From IMG/VR virus record IMGVR_UViG_3300001528_000425, positions 171,560-235,559 of that record: DNA of 64,000 bases, one strand, 5' to 3'. The notes beneath the pieces are model-generated. The model worked only from the letters and a program-made list of their open reading frames with translations. It was not told the DNA's origin and ran no database searches. Each line of letters opens with the position of its first letter. Positions within the stretch are counted from its first letter, which is position 1. Below are positions 8,565 to 62,495 of this stretch, one piece after another. The position numbers and the translations under genes were made by a program. The stretch is from a virus (Duplodnaviria > Caudoviricetes).

Positions 8565-8903
8565 ATGGTCTATGCTGTGATCAGATATGATTCCGTTTCA
8601 AGGAATATCCTTGGTGTCGGGATCAGATACGTGCGGAGTGGCATTGCACAAGGAGCTGGTGAACTCTGTCTCCGGTGTGACAACGAAGAGAACGGATTGC
8701 CTGACGGCATGTCGATTGAATCGTTCATGAACAACTTTCACCACTGGATGGTTACTACCGATGGAGGTGGTCTGATTAAAGTCAGTGAAACTTCTCCTGG
8801 TGGAAGAACTTACACGAATGCCGAATGGAATGCATTGACATACAGTCATCTTCCGTTGGCATATCGTAGAGCGAATGAGATCAAGAACTTCAAATTCGTT
8901 TAA
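8565..8903 (+). CDS. Hypothetical protein
   Basis: AAGGAGG RBS; last gene before a hairpin. Confidence 0.7.
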   Translation: MVYAVIRYDSVSRNILGVGIRYVRSGIAQGAGELCLRCDNEENGLPDGMSIESFMNNFHHWMVTTDGGGLIKVSETSPGGRTYTNAEWNALTYSHLPLAYRRANEIKNFKFV

Positions 8904-8916
8904 CAACTCAAAATAC

Positions 8917-8953
8917 CCTAGAGGGAAGGAGCGTAGTGCTCCTTCCCTCTAGG
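8917..8953. terminator. Bidirectional palindromic terminator
   Basis: 16-bp inverted repeat between convergent genes. Confidence 0.7.
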
Positions 8954-10029: not shown

Positions 10030-11928
10030 TTAGTTCTTGTTCACTCGATGCCACGGGAAGATAGACATCAACGATTTGATTGGAGCGCTCATGCCCATCA
10101 TGGTTGCCCAGTAAGTTGAAGATCCCCACGTGTTACGTTTCATCAACAGAAGCGCTTGTGTTCTTCTCATCATGGTATCCCATCGGAAGTATCTTTCCTT
10201 CAAGCCGATACCGGCAAGTGTGTCCAGATACATATCGAGTTTCGTTGTATTCAAGTTATCGATCGTCCCATCACACAAGTGTGTATAAAGCACAGGAGAA
10301 AGATCCTTGATCGAGAAACTCACTTTAACGACAGTGGGCATGTCTGTATGGTTCCACCCGAATTCCTGATCGCCTCGCTCTACACTCAGGCTATCGATGA
10401 TTCCGTAGGGAACGGCGAACATACCCTTGACATATGCCCTTACCATAAACGGTGAGGTGAATGTTGAGTTACCGGTACCTCGAGGAAGAGTACCAGCCAA
10501 CAAACAAGACAACGGGATGTAGATGGATTGGTAGATCGAAACCGGATCTCCATACTTGGCACGTAGTACCATATTGAAACTGTAGCTTTTGCTGAAGCTA
10601 CTTCCAGCCCATACTTCTGGTAAGTCGAAATATCCGTTACCGGTGTAGATATTCATAGCGGCCTTTTTGAAACCGCTAGAAGCTGCTTCCCAGAATTGCT
10701 TAAATCCAGAAACCAATGCATCCAAAGTTCCGATAACACCAGTGCCACCGGCACTGTTCATGGAGATGTCACGTTTCTGCCCAACGAATCCGTTCAAGTC
10801 CTGTGCCAACTGAGTTTCCTTGGTGCTGTTGCTGAAACTTTCGGAGGCGTTGGTACCCTTTTCGATGCGGAACCCGATGAAGTCGTTGCCACCAAGTGCA
10901 GAGCCCTTAAACGCACCAGTGAATCGATCGAAGATCGTAGATTCTTGTCCACCATCGATCTCATCTTTGTTGGTTTTCTCGTTGCGTTTGATACCCTTGC
11001 CCATTGCTTTCGCTTGCTCGTCATTTAGATCGTCAGTAGACATATTGAGTAGCTTCTGATCCTTGGCGTCTGGGTCCAATCGAGCAGCACGTTTGTTCAG
11101 GATACGAAAGATATCCGGACCGTCTTTGATGATCTCTGGGAGATTATGTCGATACATAGCTGCTATTTCTGGATTCTGCAATCCTTGGGAAGTAGTGTTA
11201 CCCCAAATACCCATATTAACTGCAAGCTTAGATGCTATGACGTTCACCAATCTCAGATACAAGGGCATGGATTGATAGAACTTGATGTAGTCGGTAACCT
11301 CAAATGTGTTACCAAGCGACAGTAACTTCGATGTCCAGATGATCGGATACCATGGAAGTTCGAATGCGATCTTCAAACCTTCTCCAAGCAGATGTCCAAT
11401 GGAATAGGCTGCGCTCGCATAACCGTTCTCCATGGTAACAGCCAACTTAGCTGCTGTCGCTTTACCAAGGTAATCTTCCAGCTTATTGAAGTGAGGTACT
11501 CCGAAGGTCATCCACAAGATGCGTTGTTGTCCGTCGAAGATCTCACTATACACTCGACCCATACCAGAGTATCCATATCCAGCAGCTCTACCAGCCTTGC
11601 TGTTCATGATAGGAACAATGTCATCATCCAACCCGAAGGACGGATAAGGATTGATAGCATCGTTACCACCTACACTTGAATCAGACACGATCGGACGTTC
11701 TCCGATCGATTTGTCTTTCTTTTCAAGATCTTTCAATTGCTCCCTGGCACGAGCTCTTGCTGTATCCACGTCCATATTTTCATCAGCTTCCATGAAACCC
11801 TTAGCGAATACATCAATAAGAGAATCTCTGTAGTTCTGATAACTCTTACCAAGGATGACTCCGTAGGGGGATTTGAGCCAGTCTGGATTCTGGTCCATCA
11901 CAGTTTCGGGTCTTTTAACCGAAGCCAT
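10030..11928 (-). CDS. Tail/baseplate protein (phiKZ gp182-like)
   Basis: SSVGGNDAINPYP..DDD..GMGRVYSE and FGVPHFN motifs; directly downstream of the gp181-like gene. Confidence 0.75.
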   Translation of the reverse strand: MASVKRPETVMDQNPDWLKSPYGVILGKSYQNYRDSLIDVFAKGFMEADENMDVDTARARAREQLKDLEKKDKSIGERPIVSDSSVGGNDAINPYPSFGLDDDIVPIMNSKAGRAAGYGYSGMGRVYSEIFDGQQRILWMTFGVPHFNKLEDYLGKATAAKLAVTMENGYASAAYSIGHLLGEGLKIAFELPWYPIIWTSKLLSLGNTFEVTDYIKFYQSMPLYLRLVNVIASKLAVNMGIWGNTTSQGLQNPEIAAMYRHNLPEIIKDGPDIFRILNKRAARLDPDAKDQKLLNMSTDDLNDEQAKAMGKGIKRNEKTNKDEIDGGQESTIFDRFTGAFKGSALGGNDFIGFRIEKGTNASESFSNSTKETQLAQDLNGFVGQKRDISMNSAGGTGVIGTLDALVSGFKQFWEAASSGFKKAAMNIYTGNGYFDLPEVWAGSSFSKSYSFNMVLRAKYGDPVSIYQSIYIPLSCLLAGTLPRGTGNSTFTSPFMVRAYVKGMFAVPYGIIDSLSVERGDQEFGWNHTDMPTVVKVSFSIKDLSPVLYTHLCDGTIDNLNTTKLDMYLDTLAGIGLKERYFRWDTMMRRTQALLLMKRNTWGSSTYWATMMGMSAPIKSLMSIFPWHRVNKN

Positions 11929-29224: not shown

Positions 29225-31083
29225 CGTTATGTTCAAGAGAACGCGCTACTGTCCTCCCCGCGGCATGACCCGCTCCGCTGCAAGCTTTCCTTGCAGACCA
29301 GACTATATCTCCACCTTCACCATTACGTGGTCAGGTGCACTTCTATTTCCTCGCCGCTTGGCAAGTACAGGGTGGATCAGTCCCTTAGTCGTTGAACTCA
29401 CCTCATGTCGATATACAGGATATATCGATTTAGAGGGCAGCTGCGGATTACCCATTACAGCGATCGCGTCTAGAAAATCCCATCTAGTCGATCATCTCGA
29501 TTTCTTTTACCATACCCAGGTTAATTACTCCTGGCCCCACAGTAATCACGTTTCCGGCTGTGGTTGGTGTATCGAGCTTTAGTGGCTTCCCGTCAATTAA
29601 GAAGTGAATAGTTAAGCATTTCTGCTTAACCAGCCATCAAATCTTTGAGATAGTAAATGGATCTGAAGGTTTACTGTATCGTAACGCTCGTTTGATAAAT
29701 TTCCTATCAACACCCAGCGCTTTCGCAGCTTCCCTCAGCGAATGAAACGTGCGTTCTTCTCCAGTTGCTTTATCAACAACCTTCATCTGAACGTTCTTGA
29801 ACTTGTTTTGTAAAACAGTGGTTGGCCATGCATGAGATGACTTGAACCTAACCCGGAACCGCCCGATCATCTTCTTTCCACCAGTCTTCGCTGCTAAGAT
29901 CAAACTACAGCGAGAGATGCCAACATAAGCTGCAGCTTCTCTCTGGTTGTGAAACGACCGAACATCTCCGGTGTCAGTATCTAGAACTTGTATCACCTTA
30001 GGAACACACTGATCCGTATAGGTAGCAGTATATCCAGGATAACGCGCTTCGAACTCTTCGATCGTCTCCCGTACCGACTTGCAGATATTCCACAAACCGA
30101 AATACTTGACGAACGTTCGAACCCCGTTGAACACAAGTTCCTTACCATCTGGATCAACGACTGTGATGATGTACCTAGATGGTTCCACGTTCACAGTCGG
30201 TCGATCATAGACCCAAGGTCTAGTGTCACCTTCCACCCGTACTTCCCACTCTTCGTTGTACAATCGATTCCCTCTCCAGCTAGCCAATGTAGCAGCTTCA
30301 CGAGAACCTAACCCAAGATATGCTCTTGCTTGTGAGATACTGGGAAATTCTTTGATCTCTCCAGTTTTCGCACTTCTCAAGAAACACTTCGTGGTTGGAC
30401 GAAGGTTGTGGTTGATCGCATGGAGGTTGTTACCTCTGATCGTTGTCCATTCCAGATTACTTGCATGATTGTTAAACTTATTACCATCGAGATGGTTCAC
30501 GATAGTGTAGAAGCCTAACCTTGGGTTATGTACCCAAGCCATGGCAACGAGGATGTGTATCGCTTTACCAATTCGTTTCTGGATGATCGTGTCCATGACG
30601 AATACTTGACGGTATTGCCCACGCAAACCTACACTGAGATGTGCTCCAGTCTTCACATCGATCACGTCTCCATCTATGGAAACCGCAACCGAAGGATACT
30701 CTGGTACGATCCTGTACGTTTCGTCATACATGATCGGTGTCCTGAATTCCACAACATAAGGGAACTCCGGTCTCCGACTGTCCATCCTGCTGTGGAAGAA
30801 GACGTCATCCGGAACAACCGGTACGTATTCTCCCAACCCTAATCTGGAGATTAGGAACAACCATCGCCTGGATCGTTGTTGTGTTTTACAATACATTTCA
30901 ATTGAGACAAGATCTCCTGCCGTTGGCAGATTCACTTCTCTCTTGTTTTCATCAACAATCTTCAAACGGTTATTGATGAAAAGCTTTTCATTCGTTCCTG
31001 GTATCACGTAGTACATAGATTCCTCCGTTTTCAGATTCTATATAATAGTGTACCATCTTCCTTTTTACTTACCTCAAAACGAT
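29225..31083 (-). mobile_element. Group I intron in nvRNAP beta, carrying an HNH ORF
   Basis: Core P AATTGACGGGAA, Q AATCCGCAGC, R GTTCAACGACTA and S GATATAGTC within 29225-29640; splits GRDGx/KGVV; 5' boundary uncertain by about 2 nt. Confidence 0.9.
29637..31016 (-). CDS. Intron-encoded HNH homing endonuclease with NUMOD1-like repeats
   Basis: IHILVAMAW..VNHLDGNKFNNHASNLEW; repeated TGE..F.S..EAA motifs. Confidence 0.9.
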   Translation of the reverse strand: MYYVIPGTNEKLFINNRLKIVDENKREVNLPTAGDLVSIEMYCKTQQRSRRWLFLISRLGLGEYVPVVPDDVFFHSRMDSRRPEFPYVVEFRTPIMYDETYRIVPEYPSVAVSIDGDVIDVKTGAHLSVGLRGQYRQVFVMDTIIQKRIGKAIHILVAMAWVHNPRLGFYTIVNHLDGNKFNNHASNLEWTTIRGNNLHAINHNLRPTTKCFLRSAKTGEIKEFPSISQARAYLGLGSREAATLASWRGNRLYNEEWEVRVEGDTRPWVYDRPTVNVEPSRYIITVVDPDGKELVFNGVRTFVKYFGLWNICKSVRETIEEFEARYPGYTATYTDQCVPKVIQVLDTDTGDVRSFHNQREAAAYVGISRCSLILAAKTGGKKMIGRFRVRFKSSHAWPTTVLQNKFKNVQMKVVDKATGEERTFHSLREAAKALGVDRKFIKRALRYSKPSDPFTISKI

Positions 31084-46928: not shown

Positions 46929-48133
46929 TCAACGAACTTTTGAAAGTCCTTTGTTGCATTGTTCAAGCAATGGTAACATCTTGTTGACAAGAGCACAAGC
47001 GTCGGCGTAGCGACGTGAAATAGGAGTCACGAATCTTGCTGAATGCAATCCAAGATGATCGTAGGTAATGTATTCTGGACGTTTCGCTGCAGGTCCAAAC
47101 ACAAGTTTATCCTGACGATAAGCTTCATCAAGCGTCAGGAAGTGCTCATTTCGAATAAAGATCTTAAGAGTGGACTCGTTAACATCCAAGCATTTAAGCT
47201 TATCTTTCTGATCGAGCACCCATTCCTTAAATGCTGGAGCTAAGATCAACTTGTCACGAGATGCCGTTAGTTGTTCCACAAAACCGAGCACTTCTTCAAG
47301 TCCCGCTGGAGTAACCCAAGCTGGCAATGCGATCGAAGCCTTGGAATTAAGAACAGTCTGCAGTCTCTGATGCTTGTTGATGTACTTAATAACGACATTC
47401 TCGTAATTGACGGTAAGCTGTCGGATCACAGCTAAACAATCATAAAGAGCCTTAGAGTAAACCTGCAATGTCCTGGTTCCGTCTTTGTGAGATAGCTTTC
47501 CACGGGTAGAATTAATCGCATCACTGATTGCATTGTAATGCTTAGTTCACGTTTGTCGGAAATTGTCACAACCTGTGGATGATCCTGCGATTTATCCACA
47601 GCCTCGTCTACTGCAGCATGAATTACTTCCTTCGCAGGTACCACTTCATTCACACCGGAAGGGGCTTTTGAAATAGCACAGCCGTCCAATATAGTTCTAG
47701 TGATAGCGTGATCACGAACATTATCGGCTAACAAATATCCTTCATTGCCTTCCGTGACTTCTCCCTTTCTCGGGTTTTCCAGGAGACGAAGATATTCTCC
47801 TCCGGCGGACCTTACGAACATCATCCGCATGCGAACCACTTTGTCTGTAATGTAGCCGATGATCGCACGAATGATCCTTACGATCTCTTTCAATGCAGCC
47901 TTAGCTATTTTACCAGCAGTGCTCCAAAATCCCTCCTGAGAAGCAACTAGTTCGTACTGCAACTGATGTTGTATAAGAAACTGTTCGAACGCTTCCACGT
48001 TCTGATCTGTCAGACCGAATTGACAAACACTGGCTTCAATCAGTCTCCATTTATCCAAATCTTGCAATAACGATGATTCGTCTAGTTCAGGGAAAGGCAA
48101 ACCATCCACAGGAATAGGACAAGCTATTCTCAT
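46929..48133 (-). pseudogene. Inner-head-like protein apparently split by a frameshift between about 47470 and 47545
   Basis: ASQE-G motif in the first ORF; the second frame is open from about 47546 (TKHYNAISDAINS...) with no evident RBS. Confidence 0.45.
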
Positions 48134-55549: not shown

Positions 55550-55819
55550 AACTCACAACAAGATCAGTGATCACATAGGCATAGTCCCGAATCGAACAGG
55601 ACTCCTCAGTTATGCCACATTCACGACCGTACACGTCCAGTTTTCATACCAAGATCTCAACTACACGGATGCAGTTGATCAGTACGTGCTGACCCACTTG
55701 CTGTGTACACCAGCGTGGGATTTATACGAGCAAGGACGCAACAGGGAAGTATGACCCGTGTGCAGACCACATGATGTTACACCACATACCATCTGCGAGT
55801 CACCTACCTGTTGTGAGTT
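55550..55819 (-). ncRNA. Unassigned ~270-nt structured RNA
   Basis: Terminal stem AACTCACAACAGG/CTTGTTGTGAGTT enclosing many stems and a T-loop-like hairpin; G-U pairs favour the minus strand. Confidence 0.65.
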
Positions 55820-55823
55820 TAAG

Positions 55824-56459
55824 TCATTTCAACTTGCCGATACGATTCGGGATATCAGTGATATCCATACGATCGCCTCTGAGCTGATCTTCCAAGAAGT
55901 TATCAACCCATTCCCGAGACGCTCTCAGCTTGGACAGTTCATCGAAGTCGTACACAGGGTCATCACTTCGGAACGTATAACCGACCGGACGATCGTTCGG
56001 AATATCCGGATGGTTGAAGTAAGATGTTCCGTTATCCAACAGACGTCCAACCACATCCTCATCCGGGAGTTTACTGGCATCCACACCCCATCCGTAGATC
56101 AGTCCCTGATCATACAGATCCCTGACTTTCGGCATCGTCAGAATCGGAATATGCATGCATGATGGAATATTCTCCAGCGCTTCCTGGTTATCGATCACCA
56201 CGATGGTGTCCGGATGGAAGATCGCTGCAGTTGCCGCATTCAACGCGCTCACCGCAGCTCCATCCATTTCCTGGATCTTCTGAGTGAACGCATCGTATCG
56301 GTTACTGAATCCCATGCTGGAAGCTGATCCGAACAGGACACCTGCCGCATCAGCGAATTGATTATTAAGTCGACTGAACACCGCTTGATTCCCGGAATGC
56401 CCTGTATACATTCCAAGTACCGGTGCAGTCATCACGTCAAGAACTTGCAATACAACCAT
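55824..56459 (-). CDS. Chimalliviridae core protein (phiKZ gp59-like)
   Basis: IPSCMHIPILTMPKVRDLYDQGLIYGW motif; position after the gp55-like gene. Confidence 0.55.
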   Translation of the reverse strand: MVVLQVLDVMTAPVLGMYTGHSGNQAVFSRLNNQFADAAGVLFGSASSMGFSNRYDAFTQKIQEMDGAAVSALNAATAAIFHPDTIVVIDNQEALENIPSCMHIPILTMPKVRDLYDQGLIYGWGVDASKLPDEDVVGRLLDNGTSYFNHPDIPNDRPVGYTFRSDDPVYDFDELSKLRASREWVDNFLEDQLRGDRMDITDIPNRIGKLK

Positions 56460-56852: not shown

Positions 56853-57389
56853 CATTGTGTTCACTGTGTTCGCTAATCACAGCAGTGTCGTTTCAGACAC
56901 ATCTCTAGCTTTCACTAGACGACCAGGTATATCCTGGAAGCGTGTATAATGATCCATATACACGGTGCAGACTATATCACCATCTCCTCATGATCGTATC
57001 TGTCCGAGTACCAGGATTCGAACCTGGGACGTTCTGCTCCCAAAGCAGACGCGCTACCACTGCGCTACACTCGGACAGATACTACCATCAAGGAGACCCC
57101 TACCGTTACGGGATCGCATGATCCCTCTCGATTTGATGACTCAAATACATTTAGTCGTTGGGCATTTAGGAACATCTCTGTTCCATTTAGCTGCTGAAGA
57201 CCCATTTGCTGATAACATCGTTGCTCAAATGCTATCAACTAGTCCTTAGGATTTAACCATAGACCATCTCCACACTTGTTTCTACTTTCGTTCCTATGCG
57301 ATAAGTTGCATAGGCAGTGGAGCTATTAGGGATTGCCAGCGATTAGATAAGTTTGCTACGCAGATCGCTCTACGTAGGGAGCAGATCAC
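56853..57389 (-). mobile_element. Group I intron 3 (ORF-less, tRNA-containing) splitting DFDG/D
   Basis: P1 GGAGT/GCTCC, P AATCGCTGGCAA, Q CTTCAGCAGC, R CAACGACTA, S GATATAGTC. Confidence 0.9.
57003..57074 (-). tRNA. tRNA-Pro(UGG) embedded in intron P8; no encoded CCA
   Basis: CCGAGTG/TACTCGG acceptor, GCGC D-stem, TCTGC-TTTGGGA-GCAGA anticodon arm, CCAGG-TTCGAAT-CCTGG T-arm. Confidence 0.92.
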
Positions 57390-57410: not shown

Positions 57411-58669
57411 CCTAATGGTCAAGTGGAATCGCAACTTCCACCGTGTGTGCTATGACACACCCTCAGTGTTTCCAAAGAGGAGCAGACTATATCAGACATC
57501 TCGAATATCACGTGTTTATCCGAGATCCTTCTCCGTTTCAGCATCCTTGCGGATGGTGGTAGCTTGTACCACACGCCATATGCTTGCGCCCTACGTCCCT
57601 GTTGGAACTAGTCGTTGAACACATCGTCTACATGAGACGACTTCGTTGCGATGATTGAGCCAATCCTTTTACTTTTTATATCCATCATAGCTTACCTCGC
57701 GGTTACTATTGTGGCTAAAAGGCTCTAAGGCTCTTCCCGCAATTAGAAGAAGTACGCACATCCTATCACTAAGATGTGGGCCCGGTGATTGTTTTATCAG
57801 TTTCCGAAGATCTTCGTTTCTTATACCTAGAATAATCAATTGGTGTTAAACGAATCGGTTTCTTATACGGAATGCCATATTGTTCAGCTATATGCCGATG
57901 TGTCCCGTGTGCAACGATATGTTGAATCGCTGTAACAGGAACATTCAACTCTCGACTAATTGCTGTCAATTTCATTCCATCCTGAATTCGTTTACATACC
58001 GCATGTACTTGCTCTTCTGTCATAGCTGACTTACGGAGCCCGTGTATCCTGGCATGTAGATGATTATCGTAAGCCGAACACCATTCCAAGTTATCAGCTG
58101 CATTGTTAGCTTTGTTGCCATCAGTGTGATTGACTTCTAATAACTTGTTAGGATTTGGTACGAACGCAAGAGCTACCAGTCGATGGATCTTCACCGACTT
58201 AAGTGATCCGGAACCTGTGTATCCGAATCTTAGATAAGTGCAGTAATAACCGCTGTTGTTTGGTGCTCCTGTTATCATCTGGTAGGTACGTTTGTTCCAT
58301 ATCCTACCATCCCGTAAGATGATGTAATTCGGGAATCCTAGACTCTCCAAACTACATTGATCTTCCGGAGGGATTTCCTTCAATTCATTGTGAAAATATT
58401 TCCGCCATAGATAATCCGTACTGAAAGTTTTAGACTTATTATCTTTCCATACGAATACAGTTGGTCCGAAATGTTTTAATTCTCGACCACTACGTTCATC
58501 TACAACGGTCTTATCTTCATAAAACCTGATGAAAGGATACCCTTCTTCTTCGAGTAATACTGATGCCTGTTGTTTCATTGCACTTCTTACCTCTGGCTTA
58601 TTAGAGTTAGGCTGTCTTCCGACAGCCCTCATCAAGCCTTCGGAAGACAGTGTGCAACGACAATCGTTG
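57411..58669 (-). mobile_element. Group I intron 2 with HNH ORF
   Basis: Canonical GCT|...G|CCT junction (SISA/PNADF); IGS GGCTG; P AATTGCGGGAA, R GTTCAACGACTA, S GATATAGTC. Confidence 0.9.
57769..58578 (-). CDS. Intron-encoded HNH homing endonuclease
   Basis: IHRLVALAFVPNP..VNHTDGNKANNAADNLEW and C-terminal HTH; start reassigned to MKQQA. Confidence 0.88.
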   Translation of the reverse strand: MKQQASVLLEEEGYPFIRFYEDKTVVDERSGRELKHFGPTVFVWKDNKSKTFSTDYLWRKYFHNELKEIPPEDQCSLESLGFPNYIILRDGRIWNKRTYQMITGAPNNSGYYCTYLRFGYTGSGSLKSVKIHRLVALAFVPNPNKLLEVNHTDGNKANNAADNLEWCSAYDNHLHARIHGLRKSAMTEEQVHAVCKRIQDGMKLTAISRELNVPVTAIQHIVAHGTHRHIAEQYGIPYKKPIRLTPIDYSRYKKRRSSETDKTITGPTS

Positions 58670-58775: not shown

Positions 58776-59168
58776 TGCAGTGTTCGGCGTAGGCGCTAAC
58801 TACACCCGCATCGTTTCAGATACTGCTCCGCCTTTCGGTCGGACGACCAGGTATATCCTGGAAGAACTCTTGCGAGTTGGCCAGACTAGCTCATCACCAC
58901 ATCCCTTATGAGACAAGGTGTGTAACGTTTGGAGCCCGCTTGGTGCTCTACTCTCCGTCCGTAGATAGGAGATAGTCGTTGAACTACCGTTAGGTAGCTG
59001 CTGAAGACCCACTGCCTAGTCCATTTAGGATTTAACCTTGTGGACATCCGTATACTTGTTTCTACTTTCGTCACTCAACCAGCTAAGGTTAAGCTACACG
59101 GCTTTAGGGATTGCCAGCAATTGGTTACATGATCGATCCTGCTTTCGCAAGAAAGGGAGCTATCCTTA
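58776..59168 (-). mobile_element. Group I intron 1 (ORF-less)
   Basis: P1 GGGAGT/GCTCCC, P AATTGCTGGCAA, Q CTTCAGCAGC, R GTTCAACGACTA, S-like GCTAGTC; paralogous to intron 3. Confidence 0.88.
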
Positions 59169-60397
59169 CTCCCGAGTAAAACAGGCAGACCCTTGTAAGG
59201 GCATTCATCCATCAGTCTCTGGATCACATCGTACACATCCTGATCGAACTCTACCAATGCCCTCGCATGCTTCTCATAAGCATCCGGATAGGACATGTGA
59301 TAATGCCGAACAAGGAAGTTGATGATCTCCAGCTTCCACTGGGCAACGCCGATCCTCCATGGGAGGTGACATTCATCTGCCTTGTGTTCTGTTACGATCG
59401 GAACGATAACAGCACGGAATGTGTTGTTCAACCTCGAAGCCAACAGGGATTTCCGGATGAACCCATATTTGCTGACCAACTTGATCTTGGTGATCTTCTC
59501 AACATAGTTGAGATAAGATTTGTACACGTTGTAGCTGTACTGCTCCAAGTAGTTTCGGTTGGCTGCACTATGAGCGATTGGGTTATGCCTGTAGTTGTAG
59601 ATCGCGCTGGATAACTCGATACATGTTTCGAGGATGGACGTAGACACATCGTCGTTGTAGGTCAACGTTCCACTCTTGGTCAAGATATGCAGAGCTTGAT
59701 TCAGTACCGGAACATGTCTGATGAACATTACGTTCCTGTACGTATCCACGAATTCCTTGATGAACAAGTTCTTCTTGGATTTGGCTCCGGTGTTTTGGTT
59801 GAGGAAATAGTTGATGATGTTATCGAAGTTCTCGTAGAAATAGGCTGGACCTTGTCCCAAGATACTGCCATAGGGTTCTGGAAGTTCACTGTCAACATCG
59901 AGGAGAAGATCGATGATCTTCTTCTTGCGTTTGACGCAACCCATCCATTTACCCAAGATCCGATAAGCTGCAGGATGCAGCATCGGAGGCATGAACTCTG
60001 GGATCTCCAGCCATGCACGGAACTTGATCTCATCTGCGAAGGCGTCGCGAACTTCCGTGTTGCAATATGGACAGATCGTACCTTTGGCGAAGTTACCTTT
60101 GGTTCGTTCACATTTGCAACTGGCGATGAAGTTCAAGTTGCTGTCGCTCTCTTGGAACAACATCTTCTTGATCGTCTCGATAGAGTTGTTCGCGACGTCT
60201 ACACCGTCCAACTCTTGGCCACATGGAACGATCATCGCATTCGGATCTTGATGGAATTCCCTATCGAAATCGAACAACCGTAACTTCGTCACGGTTGCAT
60301 GTTTCTTTGGGTTACACCATCGATCCGATGAGGCGTAATACGCCCTGACGATCGCTTCTGCGTCAACGTTCGGCTTGAATATACTACTGAACCACAT
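59169..60397 (-). CDS. nvRNAP beta' N-terminal subunit (phiKZ gp55-like) exon 1
   Basis: AGGAGG RBS at MWFSS; zinc site CKC..CPYC, KYGFIRK, RAVIVP; ends GLPVLLG. Confidence 0.88.
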
Positions 60398-60481: not shown

Positions 60482-60624
60482 AGGAATAGGCAGGACTCGA
60501 ACCTGCACCAGTTGCTATCGCTAACAACCGACTTGTCATTCTCCGAGCTTAAGGTGTATATCTCGGGATTCTCCAAGTATCCGGGGGACCGGCCCAGCAC
60601 TCTATCCAGTTGAGTTACTATTCC
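60482..60624 (-). ncRNA. tRNA-like RNA with ~75-nt expanded variable region
   Basis: GGAATAG/CTATTCC acceptor, ACTC-AACTGGATA-GAGT D-arm, GCAGG-TTCGAGT-CCTGC T-arm, non-canonical anticodon loop. Confidence 0.8.
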
Positions 60625-60639
60625 AAGTTAGAACTTAGC

Positions 60640-62223
60640 TTACCAGCCGAAGTTGTTGCCGTTCCAGCTGTTCACGCCACCAGCCGTGGTGAAGCTGTTG
60701 AAGCCCTGGTAGTTGTTCGCGCCGCTGGTGAGCAGCGAGCTGATGTTGTAGCTCGCCTGCTGGTTGTTGAAGTCGTATTCGATACGAACCACATTGCGGA
60801 TCGCGTTGGCCACCGTGTTGACGAAGTCCGGCCGGAGGACCAGACGCATCGTGAGGTAGAGCGACTGCGTGGTGTTCGGATACCACTTCTGGACCTGAGC
60901 GATGCCGCTCGACATGTCGGTCGGCTGCTGCAGGAACCCACCGAGTTCCTCGACGTTCGGGATGTCCTTGGCCATCCGCAGATAATCGATGCACCGAGTG
61001 TCGATCGTCTGGGTGGAGCCGAGGGTGACCTGCCCATCGAACTGCGGATACCTGGCGATGGCCGGATCGACTGCCGCGAGCTGCTGGCCGGAGAAGGTGC
61101 TGAGCGCGTTGATGATGGTCGCCGGATCATTGATCAGACGGTCGATCATCGGGTTGCGGAAGCGACCTTCCTGGATATCGAGCGCCAGGAACGGCATGGT
61201 GGAGTTCAGGTAGTTGCGCATGAACTCATCACGCTGCTGCTGGTTGCGGGCGATCCACGGCTTCTTGGTTTCCGGGTCGAGGATCAGGCGGCCGATGTTG
61301 TATCCGTTCTCGCTGTAGTCGTTGAACTGGTTGAGCCAGCCGTACTGCATGATGAACGCATCCATCGCGATGGAGAGGCCGATGGCCAGGGTCGGAGCCG
61401 TGAGCAGATCGGCGACGATGTCAGTGATGACAGTCATCGGCGAATACTTCGTGGTGCCGAACTGGACGTTGCCGGGAGCGATGCTGGCGTTGGCGGTCAG
61501 GTAGAACTTGGTGTAACCGGTGACGGCGATCAGCGGGATCAGATCGTACTGCGCACGCTGGTCGAAGGTCGTGGTAACGCCGGCCTTGCGGACCTTGGCG
61601 TACACCAGGAACCCGACATCGTCACGGGCCGGCACGGCGTGCGGGCTGTGGACGTCGATGAACGAACGAACTTTCTGCATGTCGCTGGTGACAGCGTATT
61701 CGGTACCGCCGTACTGTTTCGCAGTCATGTTGACGAGACGGGGCTCGGTCAGAGAGCGGAACAGGTTGATGATGGCAGCGCCGGCGCGATCGACACGGGG
61801 ATACATTTCCTTGGTGACAACGATCACCTGGGTGATCTCCGCATCGGAGACGGCGAGTGCGAACTTCTGGCGGATTTCCTTCGCCATGCAGGCCGGGGGA
61901 CGAGCGTCGATGCTGTTGTAGCTTTCAGCGAACAACAGGGCGACGGCGACTTTGCCGGCATGGAAGACGTGGCATTCGTAGCTCGGGGACGCGATGCGTT
62001 CGACCTTCGCAGCCGGAACGGCTTTGACGAGACGTTCGAGGATGGTCTCACTGTAGAGCTTCCCCTCGTTGGAGAGATGGGTCGGGGTTTCGAGAGCCAG
62101 GTTCATCAGCTCAACCACGCCCAGCGGCTGAACCGGACCATCCGCCTGCGCAGTACCGATACCGGCGCCACGGTTCTGGTCATCGAGACCTTCGATCACA
62201 ACGTTTCCGTTACTTCCACTCAT
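60640..62223 (-). CDS. chmA: Putative chimallin (phage nuclear shell protein)
   Basis: Immediately upstream of gp55-like beta' and divergent from a gp52-like gene; very strong codon bias, tandem early promoters, G/N/aromatic C-terminal tail; assignment rests mainly on synteny. Confidence 0.7.
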   Translation of the reverse strand: MSGSNGNVVIEGLDDQNRGAGIGTAQADGPVQPLGVVELMNLALETPTHLSNEGKLYSETILERLVKAVPAAKVERIASPSYECHVFHAGKVAVALLFAESYNSIDARPPACMAKEIRQKFALAVSDAEITQVIVVTKEMYPRVDRAGAAIINLFRSLTEPRLVNMTAKQYGGTEYAVTSDMQKVRSFIDVHSPHAVPARDDVGFLVYAKVRKAGVTTTFDQRAQYDLIPLIAVTGYTKFYLTANASIAPGNVQFGTTKYSPMTVITDIVADLLTAPTLAIGLSIAMDAFIMQYGWLNQFNDYSENGYNIGRLILDPETKKPWIARNQQQRDEFMRNYLNSTMPFLALDIQEGRFRNPMIDRLINDPATIINALSTFSGQQLAAVDPAIARYPQFDGQVTLGSTQTIDTRCIDYLRMAKDIPNVEELGGFLQQPTDMSSGIAQVQKWYPNTTQSLYLTMRLVLRPDFVNTVANAIRNVVRIEYDFNNQQASYNISSLLTSGANNYQGFNSFTTAGGVNSWNGNNFGW

Positions 62224-62359: not shown

Positions 62360-62495
62360 GTAATATATGTCCATTCACGGTATGGAAATATCACCTAAGG
62401 AACCATGATATAACTGCGGTTAACCCGCATTAGTCTGGATATTTTCAGTATCCGTTTCATGGTTGTAATATATGCTCCATTTGAATATGGAAATA
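62360..62495 (-). promoter_or_regulatory. Tandem early promoters (TATATTAC) for chimallin
   Basis: GTAATATA on + at 62360 and 62465, each with a shared TATTTCCATA..AATGGA upstream element on the minus strand. Confidence 0.7.

Follow-up and report, generated by a model that had tools for sequence, protein, structure and literature searches.

The locus analyzed here raises the question of what a tRNA-shaped RNA gene, encoded directly behind a predicted chimallin (chmA) gene, does for its phage. The RNA gene runs on the minus strand from 60624 to 60482 (143 nt) of the window, by which we mean the whole analyzed stretch of 64,000 nt; it belongs to a complete virus record of 235,559 bp (genome G000). 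An initial annotation, made from the letters alone, had described a tRNA-like RNA with two additional arms, without stating its strand. Every structural feature that it listed is present in 60624-60482, the strand is minus, and the gap between the stop codon of the open reading frame 62223-60640 and the RNA gene is exactly 15 nt, as described. The generic tRNA family of Rfam (RF00005) matched this interval with 39.3 bits (gathering score 29), the extra region being an unmodelled insertion, and no other Rfam family passed its gathering score for the RNA, either in the window or at homologous loci. Infernal/Rfam and ARAGORN had been proposed as checks; the former thus gave this generic match, and the latter made no call at default settings. 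Our own model R1 scored the window RNA at 150 bits. A cloverleaf descriptor found three matches in the real genome (two tRNAs and the RNA) versus one in 40 random genomes. Single-sequence folding of the window RNA was only moderately good (z −1.77), and the minimum-energy fold misfolded the D and anticodon arms by 1.7 kcal/mol; the RNAalifold consensus of the alignment is a cloverleaf with both extra arms. A JGI contig with a name that points to chicken faeces holds an identical copy of the RNA.

Drawn as a cloverleaf, the RNA begins with the 5′ strand of a 7-bp acceptor stem (60618-60624), which pairs with 60483-60489; the sequence of this stem drifts among homologues and its pairing is kept. 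It carries U73 and no encoded CCA. The D arm (60599-60615) is of class I type, with a 4-bp stem, a 9-nt loop, A10-U25, G18 G19 and A20, and is followed by an arm at the anticodon position (60581-60597), whose 5-bp stem closes the 7-nt loop CCGGUCC (60586-60592) with C33 and C37. The T arm (60490-60506) has a canonical T loop, falls within the RF00005 match and shows pair changes. The earlier statement that the RNA keeps the tRNA elbow therefore holds, with the D and T arms intact. In the window RNA, 74 nt separate the anticodon-position stem from the T arm. They include a rod (60531-60578; conserved and with pair changes) of two helices flanking a purine-rich 7×7 internal loop, capped by a 14-nt apical loop (60548-60561) that is the best conserved non-tRNA sequence across both subtypes of the family, and a GNRA-capped hairpin (60509-60530). 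The internal loop is probably a stacked non-canonical helix of tandem G.A, G.U, A.A, U.G and C.A/U.G pairs, since the variants seen are C.A, U.G or C-G at one pair and G.U or A-U at another.

We then considered the neighbourhood, all on the minus strand. The upstream gene (60640-62223, 527 aa) gave no Pfam, PHROG or PDB sequence match, and a chimallin tblastn search against cultured phages was empty. A model of the 527-aa protein matched the Goslar, 201phi2-1 and PhiPA3 chimallins (E 5e-15 to 1e-10, TM 0.51-0.58), and the gene order at the locus equals phiKZ gp54-gp55-HNH. By its predicted fold, the upstream neighbour is a chimallin. Two copies of an AT-rich motif (62465-62473 and 62360-62368) lie upstream of chmA. 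This motif occurs 28 times in the window genome, 24 times in non-coding DNA, and these phages carry 20-30 mostly non-coding copies per genome. It fits, we infer, an early promoter of the kind that virion polymerases of this group use (PMC7598289), and the two upstream copies probably drive chmA and the RNA together. An intrinsic terminator (60470-60433; 17 bp plus a U tract, −28.7 kcal/mol) begins 11 nt past the RNA and is likely the 3′ end of the chmA-RNA transcript. Downstream of the terminator lie the first exon of a phiKZ gp55-like gene for the N-terminal part of the non-virion RNA polymerase beta-prime subunit (59075-60397; phrog_2987, E 5e-58), then an HNH gene and a group I intron.

Other RNA features were observed in the same region. 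About 390 nt beyond the core of the group I intron after the polymerase gene is a tRNA-Pro(UGG) without CCA (tRNA and intron core at 57002-57074 and 57462-57843, respectively, minus strand); the matching place in G001 (L214) holds a tRNA and a truncated tRNA 5′ half. Behind a 211-aa gene (55824-56459), a structured non-coding stretch contains a T arm with an acceptor-like helix, that is, a minihelix with no D arm (~55575-55620, minus strand). A second group I intron was located at 29278-29664 (minus strand, 52.4 bits). T-arm-bearing non-coding stretches with no tRNA call were also noted in L221 (G002:130788) and L218 (G001:204008).

A 124-nt homologue in G003 was recovered from a tRNA search of related genomes, and further homologues were obtained by patterns built from this copy and by look-ups through a neighbouring protein. 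Altogether, nine further distinct homologues at 16 loci were collected, showing 55-79% identity to the window RNA. Subtype A comprises eight sequences including the window RNA, to which the others are 77-79% identical; both extra arms are present, with an insert of 64 nt outside the window and a GNRA hairpin of 4 bp instead of the 9 bp in the window. The two sequences of subtype B are 55-57% identical to the window RNA and lack the GNRA hairpin. R1 scores were 150-169 bits for subtype A and ~61 for subtype B. No full-length homologues were found in cultured phages, in GTDB genomes or with a first metagenome pattern, and no description of this RNA family was found in the literature, in a search outside which most subscription papers lay. 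All three carrier genomes tested for chimallin encode one. The comparison indicates that the RNA belongs to an uncatalogued family of nucleus-forming gut phages.

Long but unrelated tRNA-like genes, approximately 25-30 of them, were also observed in phage contigs (loci including L013, L018, L040, L048, L052, L098, L102, L105, L113, L114, L138, L144 and L145); their D and T arms lie 50-220 nt apart. A short hairpin with a CAGCAA motif after it recurs in several of these genes, and a single excision turns some of them into normal tRNAs. They were rejected as family members; with both R1 and R2 they scored at most 56 bits, no higher than ordinary tRNAs.

The genomic context of the homologues differs from that in the window. 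Where it was readable, the RNA sits in an operon between a tmRNA and a tRNA gene, beginning 1-2 nt past the CCA end of the tmRNA and with the tRNA gene within ~15 nt downstream. The upstream tmRNA was called by Rfam in L257, L271, L417, L420 and L425; L334 and L428 have an identical tmRNA 3′ end upstream, with no Rfam call. The downstream tRNA is Gln-UUG in L271, and its orthologue was read by ARAGORN as Pro-UGG in L257, L266 and L334. No tmRNA was found in the window's phage, whose few tRNA-type genes are scattered, one of them beside the polymerase intron. The RNA is absent anywhere in G001 and G002, the two closest complete relatives of the window phage, and at the syntenic locus L426 both the RNA and the tmRNA end are missing, so the RNA is dispensable. 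This distribution indicates that it is accessory and patchy among relatives.

These RNA operons hold additional elements. Upstream of the tmRNA, L426 (10387-10990) and L428 (10378-11250) contain a short tRNA-like unit (GCA loop, T-like arm), together with a structured stretch of ~450 nt; neither element reaches an Rfam gathering score. L334 (~8590-8941) and L428 (~10900-11251) also have a shorter tmRNA-like gene without an Rfam call, which shares its 3′ end with the 500-nt tmRNA of L257.

Next, the alignment was examined for paired changes. In subtype A (eight sequences), 97.6% of the cells pair and eight pairs show two-sided change. With all 10 sequences, in alignment A5, which was fitted to the model, two-sided change occurs in 19 of 34 pairs, much of it resting on one divergent sequence (the window RNA) and the two subtype B sequences, that is, on few independent lineages. 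None of 500 shuffles reached as high a count, and slid controls collapsed to far lower counts. Compensatory changes fall in the acceptor, D, anticodon-position, rod and T helices. Five of the seven acceptor pairs change on both sides, and 8-9 of the 14 positions differ between the window RNA and its subtype A homologues. The D stem is invariant in the eight subtype A copies and shows one two-sided and one one-sided change versus subtype B; the anticodon-position stem covaries. In the rod, only ~4-7 differences in 48 nt separate the window RNA from its subtype A homologues (85-92% identity), and with subtype B included in the model-fitted alignment, two-sided change affects 8 of its 10 pairs. 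The apical loop of the rod can be recognised in either subtype despite the replaced stem beneath. The extra arms are thus conserved with covariation, which was the test proposed for the locus, and the compensatory changes show that the RNA is not a decayed tRNA. A conserved pseudoknot between the anticodon-position loop and the rod loop was rejected by inspection, as it would have 3 bp in subtype A and none in subtype B.

The RNA is also conserved beyond its surroundings. The window phage and G004 share 79% identity in the RNA and 34% (median) in their proteins, and the two genomes have only 12 DNA-level matches, the RNA among them. Two other such matches lie outside the window, G000:35719-35921, which matches four places in G004, and G000:149090-149274, with 89% identity over 185 nt. 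Conversely, G003 and G004 have 61% protein identity but only ~66% RNA identity. This suggests that the gene moved between lineages, or that the subtypes are old paralogues. From sequence comparison, we conclude that the RNA gene is real and conserved.

The reading that we favor, with a probability of roughly 55%, is that the gene product is a stable RNA on a tRNA chassis, stand-alone, accessory and non-decoding, the rod of which would be displayed to a protein. In general, RNase P cuts the 5′ end of an RNA that has a 7-bp acceptor stem and an unbroken elbow, and the 3′ end of such an RNA is trimmed and CCA-tailed. The elbow and acceptor helix would therefore let host RNase P and 3′-trimming enzymes excise the RNA and keep it stable. 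The precursor would be the stable-RNA operon in relatives and the early chmA transcript in the window genome, where the gene would borrow from chmA its terminator and both early promoters. Given this processing biology and the tight packing between tmRNA and tRNA, the tRNA body most likely serves maturation and stability. The rod, as its conservation suggests, would be the working part, offering a protein both its purine-rich non-canonical helix and its single-stranded loop of 14-17 nt, as a decoy or a handle. The last and weakest step names the partner, which might be the phage early-transcription machinery (the virion RNA polymerase or a promoter-binding factor). This choice follows from the loop, which reads like an early-promoter template strand; we hold it tentatively, as a minor share of the favored reading.

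The likeness of the loop to promoters was noticed after the fact and varies between genomes, being strong in G004, present with one gap in G003, and weak in the window and L420. Promoter template strands account for 15 of the 24 other G004 sites that differ from the loop at no more than two positions; such strands number 39 in 557,000 positions. Furthermore, the upstream half of the promoter is matched at 18 sites of that genome; 17 of these are promoters, the remaining one being the sequence of the RNA gene itself. The same likeness appears in G003 after one base is removed (15 of 21). The window loop has a U-to-C core change, and no promoter site lies within two mismatches of it. Dinucleotide shuffles reached the promoter-likeness score in 5/600 to 157/600 cases, so that the likeness is partly low-complexity AT alternation, and the rod loop lacks the three bases that would match the invariant 3′ end of the promoter. 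A working antisense promoter in the loop DNA was considered and rejected: at the other 58 motif sites, spread over four genomes, a TAC/AAC end comes next, and the loop DNA has none. We know of no template-strand reading by virion polymerases comparable to that of the AR9 non-virion polymerase. The latter reads a U-containing template strand, even a single-stranded one (PMC7598289). It is rather doubtful that the loop copies the early-promoter template strand on a tRNA chassis and binds the virion RNA polymerase as a decoy. If this were true, the RNA would shut down early transcription or hold new polymerase for packaging, a 6S-like control aimed at the phage's own enzyme.

Alternatively, the tRNA shape itself could be the active part, an abundant uncharged look-alike absorbing host tRNA-targeting defences or tRNA-sensing proteins at the level of the elbow; anticodon nucleases, acceptor-stem toxins, and T-box or stringent-response sensors are candidate targets. 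The intact elbow and 7+5 helix would suit such a role, as would the company of tmRNA and tRNA genes in which the RNA travels, its accessory and patchy distribution, and the occurrence of many unrelated long tRNA-like genes in phages. Most tRNA-cutting defences attack the anticodon loop. However, the loop at that position is unlike real anticodon loops and differs between the subtypes, the acceptor end drifts, and the strongest sequence constraint is in the rod, which such a look-alike does not need. We regard this alternative as unlikely.

A trans-acting antisense RNA appears similarly unlikely. Here the tRNA body would be a stability scaffold, and the apical loop would seed pairing with host or phage mRNAs, in keeping with the conserved loop, 14-17 unpaired nt around a CCU core, which tops a covarying stem and whose complement resembles a Shine-Dalgarno sequence with an AU-rich spacer. 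However, no perfect complement longer than 10 nt was found in three phage genomes, and these genomes had no shared or start-proximal target. A conserved antisense target within these phage genomes was thus rejected.

A role tied to chimallin was the explanation that the position of the gene had first suggested, the RNA either acting in cis on the chmA mRNA (in 3′ processing, stability or antitermination) or scaffolding the phage nucleus. The 15-nt distance from the chmA stop codon within one transcription unit and the complementarity of seven loop bases to the 5′ arm of the terminator are consistent with this. In contrast, in 10 chmA relatives (the closest with 48% ChmA identity), the spacer between chmA and the polymerase gene holds a terminator alone, with or without a small hairpin, and collecting the sequence downstream of chmA, as had been suggested, yielded no such RNA in any of them. 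The phiKZ gp54-gp55 spacer contains no T loop; it is a 394-nt stretch with many hairpins and a terminator at its end (L482/L483, phiKZ 47529-47922). In the three genomes where both were located, the RNA lies 19-21 kb from chmA, and closely related nucleus-forming phages do without the RNA altogether; the chmA-adjacent position is that of the window genome alone. Antiterminator pairing between the loop and the terminator was also rejected: the duplex is weak (−8.6 versus −28.7 kcal/mol for the terminator), is reached in 3% of shuffles and is private to the window genome. Moreover, an RNase P cut would strip the terminator hairpin from the chmA mRNA, which would more likely destabilise it. Given this distribution, the proposed link to chimallin does not stand, and processing or stability of the chmA mRNA and scaffolding of the nucleus are very unlikely as the selected function. 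The comparative data indicate that the RNA is not a chimallin element.

A translating tRNA is just as improbable, be it a Thr(GGU) tRNA whose variable arm is giant or a Lak-type tRNA containing an intron that is spliced to a normal tRNA. The 5-bp stem and 7-nt loop of subtype A have the correct geometry, the window loop places GGU at positions 34-36, and the 7-bp acceptor stem, D arm with G18 G19, and 5-bp T stem with T loop are all RF00005-type features. Introns in phage tRNAs are also known (bioRxiv 10.1101/356790). Against this, the anticodon-position loop lacks both U33 and purine 37. It reads CYGGUCC in subtype A, with C33 and C37 in all eight copies, so that the other loops carry UGG-UCC with the same defects, and it is an 8-nt CGUGRRAC in subtype B. 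Among 1086 ordinary cloverleaves in the collected loci, one lacked both. The variable region of subtype A (74 nt in the window RNA, 64 nt in the other copies) exceeds the ~24-nt maximum of canonical decoding tRNAs. The discriminator is U, A or G among members, acceptor pairs are swapped and acceptor mismatches are tolerated, which argues that no synthetase identity is kept. Furthermore, no single excision produced a canonical tRNA from any of the 10 members, versus solutions in five of eight other long tRNA-like genes; no RtcB was found in these phage genomes, and no bulge-helix-bulge motif by inspection. The RNA is thus almost certainly unable to read codons, and the original view that it is not a decoding tRNA was borne out by the missing U33 and purine 37 and by the drifting acceptor and discriminator.

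Least probable of all is a decayed tRNA pseudogene with random insertions, for instance from tRNA-Arg: an ordinary phage tRNA-Arg(UCU) at locus L069 has the same D loop and T arm, but the compensatory changes in five helices and a rod 85-92% identical between phages with 34% protein identity refute this origin as far as comparative data allow.

We then considered what the favored reading, that of a stable RNA presenting its rod to a protein, would mean. ARAGORN overlooks the family at default settings and Rfam files it as a weak tRNA. Conservation points to one small mutable element, the rod with its loop, which makes the family a tractable case for the old question of the role of tRNA-like stable phage RNAs such as T4 RNA C. 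Binding of the loop to the virion polymerase, if real, would make this a phage-made promoter-mimic RNA, for which no precedent was found in the literature searched, and would offer a way to bring about the early-to-late switch or to package polymerase. Otherwise, it would be one more family in the broad class of giant-arm tRNA look-alikes.

Finally, the RNA was compared with known systems. tmRNA (RF00023) has G3-U70, no D stem, a tag frame and pseudoknots, whereas the window RNA has A3-U70 and a full D stem; no RF00023 match was obtained in the window genome, and in relatives the tmRNA is a separate upstream gene distinct from the window-type RNA. Over-long conserved tRNA-like genes also occur in other large gut phages, as with the tRNA introns of Lak megaphages (bioRxiv 10.1101/356790); removal of the insert restores a normal tRNA there, but no single excision does so in the window family. 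6S RNA imitates a promoter and binds RNA polymerase (PMC8545117). It is a long rod with a central bubble that binds the host holoenzyme, whereas the window RNA is a tRNA body with an apical loop and gave no RF00013 match; any likeness is conditional on the promoter-mimic reading.

YrlA-type Y RNAs (RF02553; PMC4201824) resemble the window RNA in being non-decoding, in mimicking the tRNA elbow, in being cleavable by RNase P, in joining a tRNA domain to a protein-binding helix and in occurring in phages. However, the window RNA has no GNCGAAN0-1G Ro60-binding motif and no RF02553 match, its arms are in the ordinary order instead of the permuted order of Y RNAs, and none of five phage genomes carried a Ro60/TROVE gene. 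Class II tRNAs, tRNA-Sec and allo-tRNAs similarly combine a cloverleaf with extra variable-region helices (Mukai et al., PMC5389517), and among allo-tRNAs U73 occurs and some were found in phages (PMC5389517). In contrast, allo-tRNAs and tRNA-Sec have an 8/4 or 9/3 acceptor branch and a long D stem with a tetraloop, whereas the window RNA has a 7/5 branch, a 4-bp D stem and a 9-nt loop. Unlike these three kinds of tRNA, it also has a class I D arm, a 74-nt two-arm insert and no usable anticodon loop or conserved identity elements.

T4 RNA C (NC_000866 rnaC) is a stable RNA of 139 nt from a phage tRNA cluster; its fold has a T arm, a helix that closes the molecule and large hairpins inside. The family shares this architecture and, in relatives, the cluster context, as a likeness only; no homology to T4 RNA C or D (the species 1 and 2 stable RNAs; rnaC, rnaD) was detected by sequence or with R1 and R2. 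The function of RNA C is unknown (PMC3014915, PMC9697503). RNA C is without a D arm and without an RF00005 match, whereas the window RNA has a full D arm. Among the systems compared, T4 RNA C is the one that the window RNA looks most like.
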